From Patescibacteria group bacterium (GTDB taxonomy: Bacteria; Patescibacteriota; Minisyncoccia; Phycocordibacterales; SIBU01): 64,000 nucleotides of DNA. The first letter of the stretch is position 1. Each line of letters begins with the position of its first letter. The position numbers were made by a program, and so were the translations under genes. Location: assembly GCA_040390045.1 (NCBI GenBank), contig JAZJZC010000004.1, forward strand, positions 579 to 64,578. The letters are read 5' to 3'. Positions 17,568 to 61,354 of this stretch are shown here, piece by piece. Below the pieces are notes generated by a model. It saw nothing but the letters and a program-made list of their open reading frames with translations. It made no database searches and was not told the origin of the DNA.

Positions 17568-17857
17568 CGATGTAAATGTTCCGAGTGCCTTTTAACGGGA
17601 TCATGGAGCGAGAAGCCCATTCTTGCAAACAGCTACAAGAATTTTTCATGTTTCCGAACAGTCAGGTAAACTATTCTCGGCGCATTATAAATTATAAATT
17701 ACAAAATGTCAATTTATTGTAAAGAGAAAGCCGCCGCCCGTGAGGGCGGCGGCTTTCATGTGCTTTGTGTCTATAAGCCGAATTCTGTCCTTCGCTTGCG
17801 CGAATGGATAGTTATTTATCTGGGCCGCACATTGCTGTGTGGCTCAAGCGGCACTCG

Positions 17858-18527
17858 CCAATTTTGCCCACCACAGGTGGCGCAAAATTGAGCGTCCTGA
17901 GATTCGCCCTAATTAAGGCGAGCGAAGGGTCTTGACCCCTCGATTACTCGGGACGCTCAATTTTTCAGCTGCCTATGGCAGGAAAAATTGGCGCACGGCC
18001 TTGCACCCAGGTAAGGATTTTGTCGTTGCACTTCTCGTATTACTACGGAACTCGCCCCGACGTAAATCGGGGCGCTCCAAGGCTTTCGCGTCGGAGCGTC
18101 TCTGTTCGCACCTCTATCCTTGCGCCTGCCCGACTGAACGAGTCAGTCGTTCGGGCGGGGACGGCGGGCGTTACCTCCCGATGCCTTTCGGATCGGGATC
18201 CCGAATCCGCAAAGCGGACATCGGGACGCTACCATTCTCCCACGCACCTCGCTTCCACTCGGTGCGGAGTTCATCAAGTTGAAAGTTTCAAGTTTATAAA
18301 GTGAAGAGGAATTCTTACTTTAAAACTTTATAACTTTATGAACTTGTAACTGCATCGAACGAAAGTGAGATGCGCGGGGAGTGTTCGGACTTTCCTCGCC
18401 AATTTTGCCCACTAGAGATCGTTTTTCATAAACTCTGATTTTACAAAATTGGGCTGCCCTTCGATTTGCATAGGAGAGCAAATCTCAGGACGCTCAATTT
18501 TGCAACCACCTCCGGTGGGCAAAATTG
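17858..18527. repeat. 670 nt GC-rich, ORF-free structured element closed by a perfect 45 bp inverted repeat
   Basis: 17858-17900 (cgccaattttgcccacc-acag-gtggcgcaaaattgagcgtcctgag) is the exact reverse complement partner of 18481-18527. Sub-motifs (gacgctcaatttt, caaaattggcg) recur internally at 17951-17995 and 18401-18420. The interior is about 60% GC against an AT-rich background, with many local hairpins. Confidence 0.6.
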
Positions 18528-18699
18528 GCGCAACTATCCAACACAAAGCTCGAAAATTATACCACATCAAATGATTAAATCAATAGGGGATAGCTACCTT
18601 AAAAATTCACCAGAGTTTGTTAACAGCGCCATTGATATTGAGGTCTCAGTTTACTATAATTAGAAGGAACAATTTATTCGCCATAATTATTAAATTCCT

Positions 18700-41836: not shown

Positions 41837-41909
41837 GGGCGGTTAGCTCAGTTGGTAGAGCATCTCATTGACGTTGAGAGGGTCAGAGGTTCGAATCCTC
41901 TACCGCCCA
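41837..41909 (+). tRNA. tRNA-Val (anticodon GAC)
   Basis: Acceptor GGGCGGT/ACCGCCC, anticodon stem TCTCA/TGAGA with loop TTGACGT, T-arm AGAGG-TTCGAAT-CCTCT. Confidence 0.85.
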
Positions 41910-41926
41910 CATTGAGTCCACGAAAT

Positions 41927-42082
41927 GTGGGCGGTAAGGAGGCAAATTGTTTTGCCTCCGTGAGGATTCGAACAGCGGAACCATGTTTTTTCAGCAGAAA
42001 AAACAGGTGAGCTGGTGTCCAGACCAAAGTGAGCGACGGCGAGCTTTGAGTCGCGGGCGAATCCTTTACTTCTACCGCCCAC
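41927..42082. repeat. tRNA-3'-associated element, copy E3 (cognate tRNA-Val)
   Basis: Begins with gtgggcggtaagg (reverse complement of the tRNA-Val acceptor 3' end) and ggattcgaac. Core: caggtgagctggtgtccagacc...gagcgacggcgagc...gagtcgcgggcgaatc. Ends ttctaccgcccac, identical to the tRNA-Val 3' end. Confidence 0.65.
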
Positions 42083-42291
42083 AAAATCAGAAATAAAGTT
42101 TGTCCTCGTCCTATCCCGTCTCGGACTACCTCGTCGGGTAATAGGCGAGGAACCGGGGCAAACTTTGTTGTAGATGTGTCGGCTCCGCCGATTCATGCGT
42201 GCGTTGCGGATTCATCCCCGCCACAGACGGACGGGTGTTCTCCGCAGTTACAATAAAAAACCTCCGCCTAAGCAGAGGTTGGGGACAGAGA

Positions 42292-52765: not shown

Positions 52766-53142
52766 CGTTCTTTAGAATTAAGAATTAGGAATTATGAATG
52801 AGGAAAATTTGTACGATATATCGTACAAATTTTAATTTTAAAAGGAAAAGAAAAAACCGAGCGGAAAGGCTCGGTTGGTGATAAATGGTGGCGACTACTA
52901 TACGACATACCAATCACTTTTTATGCGCATCTCACAGTGTGGGCAATACCAAACCCTACACTGTACTGTTAAGCCGAAGTTTTCAGTCTTTGTTGTCTTG
53001 TCAATTCGTGACGGATATGCCCCATCCGGAACAATGTGTTTGCAGACCATTTGCAAATCACCGAGCGTCCTTGGTTTTTTGTTTTTCACAAACTCATCAT
53101 TCACATTTGAGCGTTTCTAAAAAAGATGCTACATTCGGTGTC

Positions 53143-54342
53143 ATGACAAGTCAAGTTCTAAATTCTAAACCCTATACCCTAAACCCTAAAACCTTCGGAC
53201 GGGTTTTCGTCGGGCTTTCCGGCGGAGTGGATTCGTCCGTTTCTGCGGCACTGCTAAAAAAAGATGGGTTTGATGTGACCGGAGTTTTTATCCGTGTTTG
53301 GCAACCGGATTGGATTCTATGCACCTGGAAAGAAGACCGACTCGATGCTATGCGTGTCTGTGCCAAGCTCGGCATTCCATTTGTTGAATTAAATTTGGAG
53401 AAGGAATACAAAAAAGAAGTGGTTGACTACATGATTGCGGAATATAAAAAAGGCAACACACCGAATCCGGATGTGATGTGCAATCGCTATGTAAAGTTTG
53501 GGGGGTTTTATGAATTCGCGCGAAGTTCTGGCGCAGACTACGTCGCAACAGGCCACTATGCGCGGGTCATGGAACATGGAACATGGAACACAGAACATAA
53601 GACAGGGGATAGAAGACAGAAGAAAAAGACCGGCTCTTATGCTCCAGGCTCCATGCTTCATGTTGCGTGTGATGCCAACAAAGACCAGTCCTACTTCCTC
53701 TGGCAAATTCGCAAGGAGCAGTTGTCGCACATTTTATTTCCAGTCGGTGGATTGGAAAAACCAGAGGTTCGTCGATTAGCGAAAAAATTCGGTTTAATTA
53801 CTGCTGACAAAAAAGACAGCCAAGGACTTTGCTTCCTGGGCAAGATCGATATGAAAGATTTTTTGAAAAGATATATTTCAGAAAAAAAAGGAAAAGTCTT
53901 AAATGAAAGCGGAGAAATTATCGGGACACACTCTGGTGCAGTTTTTCTCACACTTGGAGAACGACACGGGTTCACGGTGAATGTGGAATCCGCCGCGGCG
54001 GACGGAACGAACGCTGAAAACAAGCTTCCATATTATGTGGTGAGTAAGGACATTAAAAAGAATACGATTATTGTTTCGAACAATCCTAAAAGTGAAATGA
54101 CTATTGGTTCAAAAAAAGTATTTGAAATTCGAGATACAAATTGGTTGGGAGAAGCGCCAACGATCGGTAAAAAATATTTAGCACGAATCCGCTATCGTCA
54201 ACCATTGCAGGAGGTTAGATTCAAGATTCATGATTCAAGATTCATGATTCACTTTGCGTCTTCGCAAAGTGGCGGGGCTCCCGGCCAGTCTATAGTTATA
54301 TATGACGGCGAAATTTGCCTCGGTGGGGGAGTTATTTGCTAA
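53143..54342 (+). CDS. mnmA: tRNA 2-thiouridine(34) synthase MnmA (with two in-frame repeat-derived insertions)
   Basis: PP-loop VGLSGGVDSSV, then ATGHYARV and KDQSYFLW. The start was reassigned to ATG 53143. Insertions sit at about 53575-53660 and 54219-54255. Confidence 0.8.
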   Translation: MTSQVLNSKPYTLNPKTFGRVFVGLSGGVDSSVSAALLKKDGFDVTGVFIRVWQPDWILCTWKEDRLDAMRVCAKLGIPFVELNLEKEYKKEVVDYMIAEYKKGNTPNPDVMCNRYVKFGGFYEFARSSGADYVATGHYARVMEHGTWNTEHKTGDRRQKKKTGSYAPGSMLHVACDANKDQSYFLWQIRKEQLSHILFPVGGLEKPEVRRLAKKFGLITADKKDSQGLCFLGKIDMKDFLKRYISEKKGKVLNESGEIIGTHSGAVFLTLGERHGFTVNVESAAADGTNAENKLPYYVVSKDIKKNTIIVSNNPKSEMTIGSKKVFEIRDTNWLGEAPTIGKKYLARIRYRQPLQEVRFKIHDSRFMIHFASSQSGGAPGQSIVIYDGEICLGGGVIC

Positions 54343-55045
54343 ATTAGGTGTATTCCAGGTTTTCCACTGCTGGACTTGCAAAAGTTCTCACAATAAGAGA
54401 GTATTAAATTTCATGCGGGCATGCATGACCAACGAGTGTTGGGGCGCCGCTCAGGCCCATCCCTTATGTCTTTCTGGGTGTTTCCCTGAGCGGCGCTATG
54501 CCTTTAAGTTTTTTGATTTCGCGGGGTAGGTGATTCCCCCGCATGGAGTGGGTGATGGTTGCCTGGGCAACCGGCGTCGTGCGAGGCGAGCCTCCAAACT
54601 GCGGTGGTAAAAATAACCTCGCACGACGCCCAATCACAAATTTTTTCGAGGAAAACAATTGCGCCCACCTCGTTTTGGGTGAGGACTCATGTGAGTCGCA
54701 CCCAGCACCGTGCAGGTCACACCTGGCCTACGCATGTGGGTTCAAACCTGCACGGTGCTAATCACTTTGTTCTTTGTACATCTTTCGCCGAAGGTTACTC
54801 TTTATTTCCTTTGCGCGAACGCCGTGCGGGAGAGCTCTCCCAATTCTCCTCGTTTGGGAGCAAGCCCTGCACGGCGACCAACTCTTTCTTTTGTTTTTTA
54901 CGTTCGACCGCATGCACCAGCTCGCGGTTTTCTTTTGCTTCGCGTTTTATGTTACGTGCTACATGTTCCCCGCCCGCCCGAACGGATTCAGGTGCGTTCG
55001 GGCGGGCATGTTCCGTGGTCTGTGGTCCGTGTGATATAATCTTTG
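54343..55045. other. 700 nt GC-rich ORF-free hairpin-dense region (candidate structured RNA/5' leader)
   Basis: About 55% GC. Long perfect hairpins lie at 54572-54630, 54706-54760, 54826-54888 and 54972-55005. All ORFs in it translate to low-complexity sequence. Confidence 0.45.
55030..55040 (+). promoter_or_regulatory. extended -10 element TGTGATATAAT 8 nt upstream of the ATP-cone/REase start
   Basis: TGn-TATAAT consensus. Confidence 0.5.
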
Positions 55046-55047
55046 CC

Positions 55048-55893
55048 ATGAGTCCCGAACAAATTTTCATCGTAAAAACCAACGGTAGTAAGGAACCTTT
55101 TCAAAATTCCAAACTCGAAGCTTCGCTTCGAAAGGCTGGCGCGTCAACTGAGGTTACCGATAAAATTGTTCATCACATTTCCAAAGAAATTGAAGATGGC
55201 ATGAGCACCTCGGCTATTTATCAGCATGCTTTTGAATTACTCCACAAATTAGAGCGTCCCGTCGTTGCGCGTTACTCATTAAAGAGAGCAATTGCCGAAC
55301 TCGGCCCATCTGGTTTTCCATTTGAAAAATTTATTTCTGAAGTCTACAAGGCGCAGGGCTTCGAAACGCTCACCGATCAAATGGTGGATGGACATTGTGT
55401 CAGTCATGAGGTTGATGTGGTAGCGTGGAATGAAAATAAATTAATTATGGCCGAAGCCAAATTTCATAATGAAATTGGGTTGAAATCGGATCTAAAAGTG
55501 GCGCTGTATGTTAAGGCTCGATATGAGGATTTGAAGGGTATGGAGTTTTTGTATGGCAAAAAACGTCAACTCGACGAAGGCATTTTGATAACCAATACTA
55601 ATTTTACCGAAAAGGCGATTCAATATTGTGAGTGTGCTGGAGTTAAGTTGATCGGTTGGAATTATCCTACCGCTGGAAATCTACACGATATGATTGAGGA
55701 TCACGGCTTGCATCCGATCACTTGTTTGACGACGCTTTCAAGCGGACAGAAAAAAAGTTTGATGGAGAAGGGGATTGTCCTGTGCAGAAATGTTCGAGAT
55801 GGACGAGAAGCGCTTTTGTCTGCTGGCTTGAGTGAGGCTTCGATTAAGGAAGCCCAAGATGAGAGTAATTTCCTGTGTCCCGTGACTATGTAA
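55048..55893 (+). CDS. ATP-cone domain fused to Mrr-like (PD-(D/E)xK) restriction endonuclease domain
   Basis: N-terminal ATP-cone (IFIVKTNGSKEPFQNSKLEASLRKAG). C-terminal REase core (HEVDVVAW...MAEAKFH). The start was reassigned to ATG 55048. Confidence 0.65.
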   Translation: MSPEQIFIVKTNGSKEPFQNSKLEASLRKAGASTEVTDKIVHHISKEIEDGMSTSAIYQHAFELLHKLERPVVARYSLKRAIAELGPSGFPFEKFISEVYKAQGFETLTDQMVDGHCVSHEVDVVAWNENKLIMAEAKFHNEIGLKSDLKVALYVKARYEDLKGMEFLYGKKRQLDEGILITNTNFTEKAIQYCECAGVKLIGWNYPTAGNLHDMIEDHGLHPITCLTTLSSGQKKSLMEKGIVLCRNVRDGREALLSAGLSEASIKEAQDESNFLCPVTM

Positions 55894-56085: not shown

Positions 56086-57603
56086 ATGTCACCGAACCCC
56101 TATGAATATCAACCTTCTGTTGAAAGATCGGATCAATTCTTCAATTTTTATAAATCACTGGTCGAGGCAACCTCTTCCAACAATGGACTTAGTAATGAGG
56201 AGCTAGCCGTGCGGTTAGAAAAATTACGAAGTGAAAAATCCCTAATCGTCGATGCGCTGCCAGGCCTAAATGCACCTCGGGCAATGTCTATTATAGATCG
56301 ATTTCTAAGCGCAGAAGAGAATGCTTCAGATGAACAGGATATGAGCGGTTTTGTAACTCTTGGTTTGGAGCTATTTGAGCAGCTTCGACCGCAGATTGAG
56401 ATGGCATTGAAACGACATGATATTGACGAACTGAGAGTTTTAATTTCTTACTCTCATGTAGCTGAACATGGTCATGATAATCAGCCATATATGGCAATTG
56501 CTGGATTGATGGATCATATGGAAAGTATAGAAAAAAAAGTAATGGGCCCAGAGAATTTTGATCGATATCAGTATTTTGTGCAATTAATATTGGAAAGGGG
56601 GGATGTAAGCCAGCGTTCTGTGGCACGAGATCTTTTGATAAAATCTGCAGAGGCAAATATAGATAATCAAAAATTTTCTGGTTTGGTTTCTAGATTCTAC
56701 GCTGGTTTTAATAACGAGGAAATCGGAATGGAAATTATTCAAAAATTTTTGGTGCGTCATAAATTACCATTTACTGAGGTGTATTCTGCGTGGGGTGAAA
56801 GTGGTAATTACAAGAAAAGAAAACATGCCACGGAGGAAGATGGTGGAATGCTTTTTAGCACAGTTATTTATCGCAATCTGGATGTGATTCGTGAAGTTGA
56901 AGCCAAGAATCCAGGAACCTGTAGGTTTTTATATGACGAGTTTAACATTGCTGATTTTGGGCGTTATCCTGCGGAATTACTTTTGGATCAACGCAGAGAA
57001 TTTGATAGTCAAAAAAATCCGTATGGTGTTATTATTTATCCTCGCAATGATCATAATGGCGCTTTTTATCAGGACGCTCTTACGATTAAGGCGTTTTACG
57101 CGGATCTAAAGGGTGAGTTTAGTCTCCGCGTTGCTGAATGTGAAGGAAAGATTGATGTCGTGCGAGCGTTGCAAAAATTCGATGGGCTGTATAATCCAAC
57201 AGACGGAAGTGGCCATAAAATTTCTTTGCTGATTCTTGGAGGTCATGGTACAGAAAATTCTATTCAGTTTGGCGGAGGAGGAAAGAAGCATACTTTGTAT
57301 ACAGAAGATTTGTCGAGAAAAGTATCAACGAAAGCTGGCGGGTATCTTGATGAGAATCCCACAATAATTCTAGATTCATGTTCGACAGGTGCGGATAAGG
57401 GAATTGGGCAAGAATTATCAAGAAAATTTGGAGCGAAGGTGGTGGCTCCGAAAACACCTACGGGTTTGCGGAGCCTTCACGCTAGTCAGAGTAGCGGGGG
57501 TAGTTTTAGATTTAATGCACAGTATAGTACAAAAACAAAAAGCGTTTTCAAGCATGGAGAACCAGTTTTAACTCATGGGGAAAATCAAATTACAACGCAA
57601 TGA
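56086..57603 (+). CDS. CHAT-domain (caspase-like HG...C protease) protein with N-terminal helical-repeat region
   Basis: The C-terminal 180 aa carry a His-Gly/Cys dyad in CHAT spacing (LLILGGHGTENSIQFGG ...35 aa... TIILDSCSTGADKG). The stop overlaps the next start (ATGA). Confidence 0.5.
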   Translation: MSPNPYEYQPSVERSDQFFNFYKSLVEATSSNNGLSNEELAVRLEKLRSEKSLIVDALPGLNAPRAMSIIDRFLSAEENASDEQDMSGFVTLGLELFEQLRPQIEMALKRHDIDELRVLISYSHVAEHGHDNQPYMAIAGLMDHMESIEKKVMGPENFDRYQYFVQLILERGDVSQRSVARDLLIKSAEANIDNQKFSGLVSRFYAGFNNEEIGMEIIQKFLVRHKLPFTEVYSAWGESGNYKKRKHATEEDGGMLFSTVIYRNLDVIREVEAKNPGTCRFLYDEFNIADFGRYPAELLLDQRREFDSQKNPYGVIIYPRNDHNGAFYQDALTIKAFYADLKGEFSLRVAECEGKIDVVRALQKFDGLYNPTDGSGHKISLLILGGHGTENSIQFGGGGKKHTLYTEDLSRKVSTKAGGYLDENPTIILDSCSTGADKGIGQELSRKFGAKVVAPKTPTGLRSLHASQSSGGSFRFNAQYSTKTKSVFKHGEPVLTHGENQITTQ

Positions 57604-58691: not shown

Positions 58692-58788
58692 AAGTCTAAG
58701 GTTGATTTGCGTTGAATCCCGCTAGAAAAGGTGCTAGTCTCAAATTGTTGTCTTGCGGGCAAGGCCGGGTTGCTAGGGATTCACCTCG

Positions 58789-60132
58789 GTGAATTCCGCC
58801 CATAACCTCCAAGAGACACACGAAGGGATCGTTGACATGAGAACATCTGCAATCACACACGGTGTCAGAATAGCCCGGCTGTTAGAGTCGGGTCAGTTGC
58901 GTACTCAGGACTTGGCGAAGTTTGCCGAGAAAGCCGAAGCCGCCTTTTACCCAGACGATGAAGTTGGCCGGACCGTTTCCATAGCGTTTACCATTGCCCT
59001 CGCGGCCGTTGATGACCGTGGTCCCAAGCTGGGACAGTTGGAGGCTTCCGTGTCCAAAGAGGTCTGGAACAATGAGGCAAAATGTGGCAGTTTAATCACT
59101 AAATTGGAGGATGCAGTGAAAGCCCGAAATGTTTTGGGTCAGGAACAGTTGGCCCGCGTTTGTGGATTGAAGGCTGAACTTGGTATTGAATTCTCGGTGC
59201 ATCCGCGGATCGAGTTCCCTGACGCCCTTGCTCTCGCATCGGCTCTTGTTGCACGAGCGCCACACGCGAAAAACGATTACGTTCATATGATGGAGGCACA
59301 AGGAGCTCTTGCACGGGCTTACCGGGAACTTCCTGGAAGTCTCCTGACGATGGAAGCCTGGCTTTTGAATATTGAGGCGAGGCTTCGACGTGGCAAAGAT
59401 GAGTGGGATTTTGCCGGTCTTGGTGCTGATTCAATGCCTAAATACTGTCCCTTACGGCCATGGGCATTCAATTCGCTTTTTCGAGTGACTCAATTACCAG
59501 CAGATTTTTCCGCCGCGCGATCTGCCGCGGAATTATTTCTGGACTTGGACCACGAGAAGGAAGCAAACCGCCCGCTTATAAACGCGGGATTGCACGCGCT
59601 CATTGCCCTTGCAGAGATTGCGGATTACAGTGGTCAGAAAGATTTGCAACCGGAAATTAAAGCCATCAACCAGGAGGTCCTGGGCTGGGTTGATGCCGCG
59701 CCGGAACAACTCTGCCTTGCTGACAGGATTGAAGTTTTGGTGAGGCTTTTTGGTGCGACCCGCGATCCGAAGTATGCTGTCCGATGCAGTAATTTGATGG
59801 CTTCGACAACTACCGGAGTTCCAAATGTGATCGAGAGCTACATCCGTCTTTTTGGTTTCGGTTATACCGATCTAAAAGCGGATTACTTGCTCAGGCAGGT
59901 AAAGGTATATGGAGATGAGGGGATAGTTGGGCGTCGGCGAAAAGCTAGTCTACTCCTACTGGCCATCGAAAATTCGGTCGTGAATAAAGTGGATGCTCCG
60001 AAAGTTTGGCGTGAGGCCTACGCCTTCGCCGAGCAGGAATTGGGTGACGCAGAAAAGTTCGAACTTTTCTGCCGCCTCGCCCGCGTGGCGAAGACGATGG
60101 CAGAGGTGCCAGTGTTTCCGCCGAAGTCGTAA
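58789..60132 (+). CDS. hypothetical protein (GC-rich, likely foreign)
   Basis: 447 aa, about 55% GC, Ala/Leu/Arg-rich helical. No recognised domain. Confidence 0.45.
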   Translation: MNSAHNLQETHEGIVDMRTSAITHGVRIARLLESGQLRTQDLAKFAEKAEAAFYPDDEVGRTVSIAFTIALAAVDDRGPKLGQLEASVSKEVWNNEAKCGSLITKLEDAVKARNVLGQEQLARVCGLKAELGIEFSVHPRIEFPDALALASALVARAPHAKNDYVHMMEAQGALARAYRELPGSLLTMEAWLLNIEARLRRGKDEWDFAGLGADSMPKYCPLRPWAFNSLFRVTQLPADFSAARSAAELFLDLDHEKEANRPLINAGLHALIALAEIADYSGQKDLQPEIKAINQEVLGWVDAAPEQLCLADRIEVLVRLFGATRDPKYAVRCSNLMASTTTGVPNVIESYIRLFGFGYTDLKADYLLRQVKVYGDEGIVGRRRKASLLLLAIENSVVNKVDAPKVWREAYAFAEQELGDAEKFELFCRLARVAKTMAEVPVFPPKS

Positions 60133-60196
60133 GGAGTTCTTTTATTTTTTCCAGCCGAGTTGCCCAGCGCATCTCGGTTTTTTCTTTTGCCCGCTA

Positions 60197-60234
60197 CCCG
60201 TCAACCTGCCACGTCGACGTGGCAGGTTGACGGG
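60197..60234. terminator. 38 nt perfect palindrome cccgtcaacctgccacgtc/gacgtggcaggttgacggg
   Basis: Perfect inverted repeat after the 58789-60132 gene. A second hairpin lies at 60244-60268. Confidence 0.6.
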
Positions 60235-60424
60235 TGTCGAAATGCCATTCGCACATTCGTACGAATGGGCGAATAACAATCATTATTTGACGCTTTTTTA
60301 AAATGCTGTATGTTGAAACTCGGTCTGTTCTTTGCAAGCAATTGTCGAGACAACCAACTCACGGCGAAGCTGGCCTTGTGTCAGACGTAGCCAAAGCGAA
60401 ACGCAGAATTGAAAGGATCAACCT

Positions 60425-61354
60425 ATGCTACATGCAAAGGGTAGTCTTAGCAGTGTGGAAGATGGTCACGGCATGCACAGATGGAATCCCTATCATGTGG
60501 GACACAACCTGACATCGCCGGTCCTAGATGCACTTGGAAGGAACAAAGTCGAAGCCGGTCATTTAGGTTTACTTCTGAAAGATAGGGATCGACTTGAACG
60601 TGTCGCGCGGATGATTCGTTGTGGTGGATGGTCTCTTACAGAAATGGAGGCTAGAGCATTCGATGTCCTCGGTGAATCGAGGATGCATATTGCAGATCAA
60701 GTCACAGGTTTGTGGGAGAGGCGGAAGGCTACTCTGCAAATGAAGAGTTTTGCTCTTCCGTGCGACATGATTATGGCTGCGCCGGAACGGCTCGTGTTTA
60801 TCCTGGGACTTCCTCTGATGGAAATGTACGAAAAAATCTGCCAGCATCCTCTTATTTCCCATCGACTGATGACGGAGAAAGTGCTGCCACAAATTAAAAA
60901 ATGGGAAAAGGAATATGAGCCAGCACAAGCTGGCTACCACCTCATTCGTCCACTTCAATACCAGGACAAGATTCGCTGGAATGAAGAGTCGCATGGGCGA
61001 AATATTACCCGGGAAGAAACCCTGGAGGTAATAGACTCGATCGAACCGGCCTTCCAGTATGCTTCACCCGCACTTGTTCTGGAGGCCATGATCTCGCATC
61101 TATACATCGTCGGCTACAGCGAAAAAGTTGACGAGGACACCAACGTGATCAGTCAGTTCAGTCACCGTGTCCCTGTTTCTAGGTCGGTTACTACGGTGGC
61201 GGCCGCAAATTTTGTTGGCTGCTTTTTCACCTCAGACGGAGGAGGGGAAACCTTTCCAGCAAGCAATCGAAAGCCGAAAGAGTATTATCTCGCAGTTATG
61301 CACTACCCATGGAATGGTTGGTCAGGCAATACGGTTATTTCTCGGAAACTTTGA
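60425..61354 (+). CDS. hypothetical protein (GC-rich, likely foreign)
   Basis: 309 aa, about 52% GC. Confidence 0.4.
   Translation: MLHAKGSLSSVEDGHGMHRWNPYHVGHNLTSPVLDALGRNKVEAGHLGLLLKDRDRLERVARMIRCGGWSLTEMEARAFDVLGESRMHIADQVTGLWERRKATLQMKSFALPCDMIMAAPERLVFILGLPLMEMYEKICQHPLISHRLMTEKVLPQIKKWEKEYEPAQAGYHLIRPLQYQDKIRWNEESHGRNITREETLEVIDSIEPAFQYASPALVLEAMISHLYIVGYSEKVDEDTNVISQFSHRVPVSRSVTTVAAANFVGCFFTSDGGGETFPASNRKPKEYYLAVMHYPWNGWSGNTVISRKL

Follow-up and report, generated by a model that had tools for sequence, protein, structure and literature searches.

The spacer between mnmA and a gene for a protein with an ATP cone and an Mrr_cat domain, in a 64,000-nucleotide (nt) stretch of the metagenome-assembled genome of a Patescibacteria group bacterium (Paceibacteria/Taylorbacteria-like; contig JAZJZC010000004.1, positions 579 to 64,578; the whole stretch is called the window here), probably gives rise to a plus-strand structured RNA that is ~0.53 kb long (~54412-54940 of the window), lineage-restricted and made up of four paralogous hairpin modules of two tiers each. 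The spacer covers 54343-55045 (703 nt), with mnmA on its 5' side and the ATP-cone/Mrr_cat gene on its 3' side. The helices, their conservation and covariation, and the boundaries of the element against the flanking genes were directly observed, while its transcription is predicted. No described RNA family matched the element, and the most suitable label for it is that of a candidate structured RNA, new and of narrow distribution.

The GC content of the spacer was 52.6%, compared with 42.8% for the whole window and 42.6% for the flanks, and reached 55.3% at its peak in 300-nt windows. The initial annotation, made from the letters alone, had put these values at about 55% and 40%, figures that were slightly generous but right in substance. 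The 703 nt contained four perfect hairpin stems of 12 bp or more, and 300 dinucleotide-preserving shuffles of the spacer gave a mean of 0 and a maximum of 0 such stems. The fold z-score was -7.4 for the plus strand and -7.9 for the minus strand, and the counterpart of the spacer in a related contig, L031, scored -7.7. The amount of hairpin structure is far above chance. All four of the long hairpins listed in the initial annotation were present (H2, H3, H4 and H5w, Table 1), together with a fifth at 54444-54496 that was not on its list (H1).

L031, a Logan contig, encodes an ATP-cone protein 85% identical to that of the window and carries, at the corresponding position, a spacer of 745 nt, which could be aligned with the element. 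The C-terminal halves of the two mnmA products were 57% identical, and identity at four-fold degenerate sites of the ATP-cone gene was 24%, meaning that these sites are saturated. Identity between the two elements was 52% overall, and they shared perfect blocks of 14 to 19 nt: CCACTGCTRGACTTGCAA, GTGGGTTCAAACCTGC and GCACGGCGACCAAC. The first of these is the 5' block, beyond which conservation ran on through TAAGA.A.TATTAA, and the last belongs to module H4. Loops were conserved as well, with 21 of 32 positions identical in H2 (66%) and 21 of 28 in H3 (75%). In the four orthologous stems 30 pairs were unchanged, 11 had double substitutions, 5 had single substitutions that still allow a G·U pair, and 6 scored as broken, mostly because of a register-shifting bulge in H1 of L031 or a position at a helix end. 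The stem sequence of H1 was largely different from that of its ortholog (704-766 in L031) and pairing was kept, with five double substitutions; the inner stem was the same in both, and the L031 ortholog had a CU-rich loop of 15 nt. Pairing was also kept in H2 (827-889 in L031; two double substitutions and one single), and H3 (969-1021) had four double substitutions and one single. One of the small linker hairpins, S2, was CGCGGG/CCCGCG in L031 versus CGAGG/CCTCG in the window, a change from A-U to C-G, and its loop, ATTGC.CCC, was conserved. Insertions and deletions between the two elements were not codon-like.

Compensatory changes and conserved loops that persist after neutral sites have become saturated indicate long-term purifying selection. 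It had been suggested in the initial annotation that the region could be a large structured noncoding RNA and that covariation be looked for in homologs; the ortholog in L031, with its 11 double substitutions and its conserved loops, lent support to this suggestion.

The nine long hairpins, four from the window and five from L031, aligned as a single family. On the outside of each module is a stem of 11-15 bp (consensus GGCGYCGTGCRGG / CCYGCACGRCGCC), followed inward by an internal loop and then by a short inner stem whose apical loop is often pyrimidine-rich. In H1 and H4 the inner stem is of the form yCCCA/TGGGr under a pyrimidine-rich loop of 10-15 nt, all within the loop of ~30 nt that the outer stem encloses, and H3 has a weaker version of the same arrangement. 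In the nine-module alignment 94% of the cells were paired and 9 of the 13 pairs had changed on both sides. The observed values of the pairing measures were not reached in any of 500 shuffles, and sliding the 3' partner by one to three columns reduced pairing to 30-47%. Mean column identity among the modules was 58%.

The modules are spaced 116-152 nt apart, with U-rich linkers of ~60-70 nt that contain small hairpins, and a pyrimidine-rich tract, U-rich and single-stranded, comes after each long hairpin. One linker motif, TTGATTTCGCGGGnTAG, was found after H1 in the window and after H2 in L031, which indicates that the array was built and remodelled by tandem duplication. The predicted RNAs differ in size: five modules and ~0.65 kb in L031, four modules and ~0.53 kb in the window. 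A covariance model of the module (R1) was searched against the window and 32 related loci, 310 kb in total, and identified no copy beyond the nine training hairpins.

The most conserved block of the element sits directly after the mnmA stop codon and consists of TTGCAA, 17 nt, and GAGTAT (CACTAT in L031). It is similar to the stretch just upstream of the tRNA-Gly gene in the window, including the 5' GCGGG of the tRNA itself (84% over 31 nt, E = 0.037). This suggests a promoter of the type used for stable RNAs, with a predicted start near 54412. At the other end, a terminator-like hairpin with a T-run lies between the element and the promoter of the ATP-cone gene in both lineages; its ortholog in L031 is ACCGCG...CGCGGTTTTTTT at 1285-1312. 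The hairpin in the window, at 54907-54940, was overlooked by a consensus terminator scanner because its loop is longer than 8 nt. The plus strand appears to be the transcribed one for three reasons. When the module stems are read on this strand, there are ~9 G·U cells versus 2 A·C cells. In H3, the inner stem has changed on one side (CCUAC to UCUGC opposite GUGGG) in a way that is compatible with pairing in plus-strand RNA alone. Finally, the terminator and the U-rich linkers are directional and fit the plus strand.

Table 1. Coordinates of the structured element and its boundaries in the window
Feature	Coordinates	Strand	Remarks
Conserved 5' block, promoter-like: TTGCAA 54376-54381 (-35-like), 17-nt spacer, GAGTAT 54399-54404 (-10-like)	54364-54404	+	
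Predicted transcript of the structured RNA, ~0.53 kb	54412-54940	+	From promoter-like block to conserved terminator
Module H1: outer stem 12-13 bp, inner stem CCCA/TGGG, CU-rich 15-nt apical loop	54443-54497	+	Perfect 12 bp at 54444-54455/54485-54496, 29-nt loop
Linker hairpins S1 GCGGGG/CCCCGC (54521-54542) and S1b GGTTGC/GCAACC (54557-54572)	54521-54572	+	U-rich tract in front
Module H2: perfect 14-bp stem, 30-nt loop	54573-54630	+	Arms 54573-54586/54617-54630, 100% complementary
Linker hairpins S2 CGAGG/CCTCG (54647-54672) and S3 (54677-54703)	54647-54703	+	
Module H3: perfect 14-bp stem, 28-nt loop with conserved motif CGCAYGTGGGTTCAAACC	54704-54759	+	Arms 54704-54717/54746-54759
Linker hairpin S4, predicted (minimum-free-energy fold)	54785-54819	+	No clear L031 ortholog
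Module H4: outer stem 11 bp (one G·U pair), inner stem CTCCCAA/TTGGGAG, CU-rich apical loop, then ACCA	54820-54880	+	Arms 54820-54830/54866-54876, 35-nt loop
Intrinsic-terminator-like hairpin ACCGC...GCGGT, then tract TTTTCTTTTGCTT	54907-54940	+	
Hairpin H5w: 13-bp stem, 10-nt loop, between terminator and ATP-cone promoter	54969-55007	+	Arms 54972-54984/54995-55007
Extended -10 TGATATAAT and ATG at 55048	55032-55050	+	Outside the element; marks its downstream limit

Hairpin H5w has a different stem sequence and is outside the module family, and there is no counterpart at that place in L031.

Related loci were found by scanning genome contigs with the ATP-cone protein, which gave 30 loci. In the 30 species-representative genomes the gap between mnmA and the ATP-cone gene was 8-140 nt or was filled by unrelated inserts, none of them both GC-rich and hairpin-dense. 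Because these 30 relatives are without it, the element is considered an insertion confined to one lineage group. Its only other carriers were L031, reached via protein P0002, and an identical copy on contig L088, reached via P0121; contig look-ups for P0003, P0010, P0012 and P0013 revealed no element. L088 comes from an independent Logan assembly (SRR26324623) and is identical over the whole region, so the spacer is not an artifact of a single assembly. An exact-motif scan of the JGI metagenomes with CGCANGTGGGTTCAAACCTG yielded 0 matches, and one with CCACTGCTRGACTTGCAA yielded 37, all due to chance, the best of which (L070) was inside a coding region. The 18 and 6 matches from exact-motif scans of IMG/VR were likewise all chance matches, and BLASTN against phages and plasmids gave no match to the element.

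Unrelated inserts of 0.6-1.8 kb were also seen at both the yceG/mnmA and the mnmA/ATP-cone junctions in several relatives (positions 2767-4330 of L032, and the gaps in L001, L005, L007 and L015). Insertions thus appear to have occurred repeatedly at both junctions in this clade.

Of the genes on either side of the element, the mnmA open reading frame (ORF) spans 52885-54342, with its stop at 54342, and contains tRNA_Me_trans domains. NCBI MES2088109.1 ('ATP cone domain-containing protein [Patescibacteria group bacterium]') has exactly the sequence of the product of 55048-55893, for which there are more than 6,000 homologs. The gene order DUF8128-yceG-mnmA-ATPcone(-DNA_binding_1) was kept in ~30 related genomes, and the ATP-cone/Mrr_cat gene always follows mnmA in the clade. 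The locus is thus part of the core synteny and not an island, contrary to the association with an island proposed in the initial annotation. The extended -10 box that had been noticed at the end of the spacer, TGATATAAT at 55032-55040, was verified; it lies 7 nt ahead of the ATG at 55048. Since a TGTATAAT-type -10 box 6-8 nt before this ATG was kept in ~20 relatives, in some of them inside the end of mnmA, the ATP-cone mRNA is probably leaderless. All homologs of the protein begin at the same methionine. The reading frame remains open for 163 codons farther upstream, and one gene caller over-extended the gene accordingly (P0121, 400 amino acids), but this long open frame is an accident of the GC-rich sequence. 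It is the only long open frame in the spacer, in agreement with the earlier remark that no credible ORF is present.

Several other features of these genes were observed. The first ~120 codons of the mnmA ORF (52885-53244) have no counterpart in relatives, with homology beginning at residue 121, and the true start is probably downstream, near 53143, which would give a yceG-mnmA spacer of ~380 nt. In relatives, the corresponding spacer measures 100-880 nt and is somewhat GC-enriched. Near the 3' end of mnmA, at 54217-54251, there is a perfect tandem repeat of 14 nt (GATTCAAGATTCAT, 2.4 copies) that encodes a repeated DSRFMIH-like peptide and is the same in L088. Between the ATP-cone and DNA_binding_1 genes is an ORF of 505 amino acids (56086-57603) with no match in a Pfam scan and no equivalent at that position in any relative examined; the L031 contig ends before this position. 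A connection of this ORF with the element was considered but not retained. Leaderless genes are apparently common, as several genes of the window have a TAnAAT box no more than 16 nt from the ATG, and a Shine-Dalgarno-like motif was found for 5 of the 43 long ORFs of the window. A second GC-rich block (51-53% GC) at 58700-61100 covers the ORFs 58789-60132 (447 amino acids, no Pfam match) and 60425-61354, and may be horizontally acquired coding DNA.

A range of known identities was considered for the element. Rfam 15 (4227 models, including riboswitches, transfer-messenger RNA (tmRNA), signal recognition particle (SRP) RNA, 6S, RNase P, GOLLD/ROOL/OLE/HEARO, and group I and II introns) gave nothing at the gathering threshold, as the initial annotation had anticipated in reporting no RNase P, tmRNA, SRP or group I/II intron signature and in naming Rfam as the search to run. 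At E ≤ 10 on 54200-55150 the best match was ssNA-helicase (21.5 bits versus a gathering threshold of 41.5, E = 0.27), and the rest were noise. ARAGORN predicted no tRNA or tmRNA, either by default or with the threshold reduced to 90%, and at lower thresholds its matches were inconsistent and did not correspond between the two lineages. A tRNA, tmRNA or tRNA-like element was rejected on these grounds, and the partial resemblances to tRNA, namely GTGGGTTCAAACC in H3 and the stem with ACCA behind it in H4, are leads only. The T-loop-like GUGGGUUCAAACC in H3, this stem with ACCA, the neighboring mnmA and the tRNA-Gly-like 5' block may reflect descent from a tRNA or a partner that binds tRNA, but ARAGORN and Rfam do not support membership in any tRNA-like family.

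Repeat arrays of other kinds were also rejected. An antitoxin array of the type III toxin-antitoxin kind is not indicated, as TRF detected no tandem array in the element, mean column identity of the modules is 58%, and the ATP-cone gene has a separate promoter and occurs without an array in 30 relatives. The repeats are inverted pairs with loops conserved between lineages and no cas domains nearby, which does not fit a CRISPR array. The flanks of the stems (CAATCAC, TAATCAC and ACCAACT) lack the GTTRRRY core of an integron attC site by inspection, and there is no integrase in the neighborhood. Mimicry of helix 45 and the anti-Shine-Dalgarno tail of 16S rRNA, suggested by an AUCAC motif and the pyrimidines next to it downstream of H2 and H3, was discounted because the tail is not conserved in L031 and the window does not contain the 16S rRNA of the organism.

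In the explanation favored here, one module would have been duplicated in tandem to give the array, with subsequent selection on both pairing and loop sequence. The RNA would start from its own promoter-like block after the mnmA stop and end at the conserved intrinsic terminator before the ATP-cone promoter, and it could be a multivalent and stable scaffold or decoy whose several conserved loops engage a partner, either protein or RNA. Such a role is weakly favored over regulation in cis of either flanking gene, since conserved loop sequences argue for specific contacts. There is a precedent for structured RNA genes of this appearance in the genome, as a GC-rich, ORF-free island at 17.7-18.5 kb is RNase P RNA. 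A broader proposal can be put forward only tentatively: that the element represents a new class of large (~0.5-0.65 kb) modular RNAs of Patescibacteria, stable and independently transcribed, with hairpins resembling acceptor stems (one module ends in ...CGGCG-ACCA and another has the T-loop-like GUGGGUUCAAACC), that serve as multivalent scaffold or decoy, possibly for a factor that binds tRNA or rRNA; the neighboring mnmA is a tRNA-modification gene.

Several observations weigh against a dedicated, independently transcribed RNA. Only two distinct element sequences are available, so that the covariation comes from one orthologous comparison and from paralogs. Thirty relatives do without the element, which is thus dispensable for the flanking genes. 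The promoter-like -10 (GAGTAT/CACTAT) is weak, and there is no terminator between the mnmA stop and H1, for which reason co-transcription of the element with mnmA is possible. The plus-strand energy gain of 18-21 kcal/mol is mostly compositional, and the energy gap between strands was discounted as strand evidence, as shuffled plus-strand folds were also ~16 kcal/mol better than shuffled minus-strand folds. Targeting of Shine-Dalgarno sites by the CU-rich loops is unlikely in view of the rarity of these motifs in the window and the many genes that look leaderless.

The main rival explanation is that the array is a 3' untranslated region (UTR) of mnmA, comparable to BIME/REP arrays, which would protect the mRNA from 3'-to-5' exonucleases and stop read-through into the ATP-cone promoter with no function in trans. 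The missing terminator ahead of H1 and the weak -10 are what this predicts, as are the U-rich tracts after every long hairpin, the terminator that closes the array and the separate promoter of the ATP-cone gene. In addition, relatives with gaps of 80-140 nt, such as L002, L007 and L008, have one ordinary terminator hairpin at the same position. This explanation accounts for the position and the U-tracts, but not for the conserved loops: stabilizers need pairing only, yet the loops of 28-33 nt and the 5' block are conserved at 66-75%, compared with 24% at neutral sites. Hairpins with loops of ~30 nt and U-tracts 5-10 nt past the stem are also poor intrinsic terminators, and the terminators of the relatives have no sequence relation to the modules, which also led to rejection of the idea that the array grew from an ancestral mnmA terminator. 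A purely 3'-UTR role is accordingly regarded as unlikely. It is quite improbable that a mobile or selfish repeat (a miniature inverted-repeat transposable element (MITE), REP/REPIN or BOX-like) inserted at the mnmA/ATP-cone junction and that the array is its relic or its cargo, with hairpins that reflect its origin rather than a host function. The element is an insertion relative to the 30 relatives and unrelated inserts occur at the same junction in L001, L005, L007 and L015; its build is modular and duplicative, with a module order that differs between lineages; and its distribution is patchy, as mnmA of L031 (57% identity) is no closer than mnmA of element-free relatives. However, BLAST of the element against the window revealed no other copy, and neither the other 63 kb of the window nor 250 kb from related loci contained a second one, so that dispersed palindromic repeats (REP/BIME, REPIN, MITE and BOX) were rejected on the basis of a single locus in 310 kb, 64 kb of it from this genome. 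Nor did phages, plasmids, viral contigs or the JGI metagenomes provide a match. The element has no terminal inverted repeats, and no target-site duplication is common to both lineages (a 14-nt direct repeat at 54410/54997 in the window is missing from L031). A domain scan of the neighbors identified no transposase-like or recombinase gene, and the double substitutions and preserved loops at the orthologous locus, beyond the point of neutral saturation, speak for long-term purifying selection.

Two further explanations dispense with a structured RNA of this kind. The inverted repeats could work at the level of DNA, as cruciforms or sites bound by proteins that serve, for example, a recombinase, replication or a nucleoid protein, and it is true that the stem sequence is conserved among paralogs (GGCGYCGTGCRGG) beyond what pairing needs and that perfect palindromic arms fold equally well on either strand. 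This is nevertheless very improbable, given that G·U-type appositions on the plus strand are tolerated ~9 to 2, that the one-sided changes in H3 pair only as plus-strand RNA, that the terminator and U-tracts are directional, and that there is no adjacent recombinase or similar gene. Scarcely tenable, and largely refuted, is the possibility that the spacer is coding sequence, degraded or unrecognized, a leader peptide with an attenuator, or a leader or riboswitch of the ATP-cone gene. Besides the open upstream frame and the single 400-amino-acid gene call, there are ORFs of 38 codons in the window and 40 in L031 that start at an aligned ATG near 54413, but their products have no similarity to each other, and a conserved small ORF was rejected. 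The concatenated six-frame translation had no match at E ≤ 0.01 among 5.8 billion proteins, which, with the indels that are not codon-like, also disposed of a degraded gene or pseudogene; the initial annotation had offered a relic of a GC-rich foreign gene as an alternative and a relaxed protein search as the way to exclude it. The other alternative offered there, a leader of the ATP-cone gene, fails because the element lies upstream of the -10 box that is kept next to the shared start methionine, with the terminator-like hairpin between them, and no Rfam riboswitch matched.

The RNase P RNA of the window was itself difficult to recognize. It is encoded on the minus strand at 17758-18535 and is divergent, scoring 51.8 bits with Rfam RF00010 versus a gathering threshold of 100 (E ~1e-14). 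Only the 3' half of the model (ACAGAAUUCGGCUUA) aligned, at 17758-18068, and the CR-I motif GAGGAAAGUCCGAAC was found ~330 nt farther upstream, at 18397-18383 on the minus strand. The gene is probably oversized, at ~780 nt, with a GC-rich insert at ~18040-18290, and there are internal direct repeats at 17854-17876/18395-18417 and 17947-17995/18484-18532. The P4 probe used in the initial annotation, AAAGTCCGG, would miss this RNA, as the sequence there is AAAGTCCGA. One more region of the window, 41898-42290, downstream of tRNA-Val, was 52-59% GC, ORF-poor and without an Rfam match. The 3' end of the tRNA pairs with 41924-41936 in a 13-bp hairpin, and a partial copy of this 3' end (TTCTACCGCCCACA) occurs ~170 nt downstream, at 42070-42083. 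The region could be an att-site duplication left by an integrated element, or another structured RNA.

Very few noncoding RNAs are on record for the candidate phyla radiation, and post-transcriptional control in these organisms is essentially unknown. Standard tools miss even housekeeping RNAs there, as the RNase P RNA at about half the Rfam threshold illustrates. The importance of the element is limited for now by its distribution in two lineages, but if the favored explanation is correct, it would be a candidate regulator in candidate phyla radiation organisms and a tractable case of the birth of a large structured RNA by recent tandem duplication of one hairpin module.

Several known systems resemble the element in part. 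REP/BIME sequences of enterobacteria and BOX elements of pneumococci are GC-rich imperfect palindromes that form modular intergenic arrays just after genes, provide 3' UTR hairpins and vary in module number among strains. The element is likewise a modular GC-rich hairpin array after a gene, but those repeats are dispersed in tens to hundreds of copies per genome whereas the element had no other copy in 310 kb, and its modules are individually orthologous between two lineages with conserved loops of ~30 nt. In type III toxin-antitoxin systems such as ToxI and CptI, a promoter, tandem RNA repeats and a terminator precede the gene for a protein with a nuclease fold, and the layout at this locus follows the same order. 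The ToxI repeats are 36 nt long and nearly identical, in contrast to the modules of the element (58% mean column identity), and the ATP-cone/Mrr_cat gene, conserved in its synteny, is served by a separate promoter and is found in 30 relatives that lack the array.

Tandem units of ~60-130 nt with a shared origin, placed together in one intergenic region, make up LhrC1-4 in Listeria and the NsiR1 array in Nostoc, and the loops of LhrC are CU-rich. The tandem related units of the element, spaced as described above, are similar to these. However, each LhrC or NsiR1 unit has a promoter and a canonical terminator, whereas in the element the U-tracts are offset from the stems, the GC-rich linkers have no AT-rich -10 boxes, and a promoter scan detected no plus-strand sigma-70-like site inside the array, although promoters of Patescibacteria are poorly defined. 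LhrC targets Shine-Dalgarno sites, which is unlikely for the element in a genome poor in them.

The sponge RNAs CsrB and RsmZ are transcripts of several hundred nucleotides with repeated stem-loops, single-stranded linkers and a terminator, and bind their partner multivalently. The element has the same repeated stem-loops, linkers and terminal terminator; the loop motif repeated in CsrB/RsmZ is GGA, while the modules of the element share a stem consensus and differ in their loops, with no match in Rfam. A Csr/Rsm-type partner is not known from Patescibacteria. GOLLD, ROOL, OLE and HEARO were found as long GC-rich intergenic regions in AT-rich genomes, and the element resembles them in being GC-rich, ORF-free, highly structured and in the range of 0.5-0.8 kb. 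Their models gave no match to the element even at E ≤ 10. These RNAs, whose function is unknown or scaffold-like, fold into complex multistem junctions and are widely distributed, whereas the element is a linear array of similar hairpins found in two lineages.

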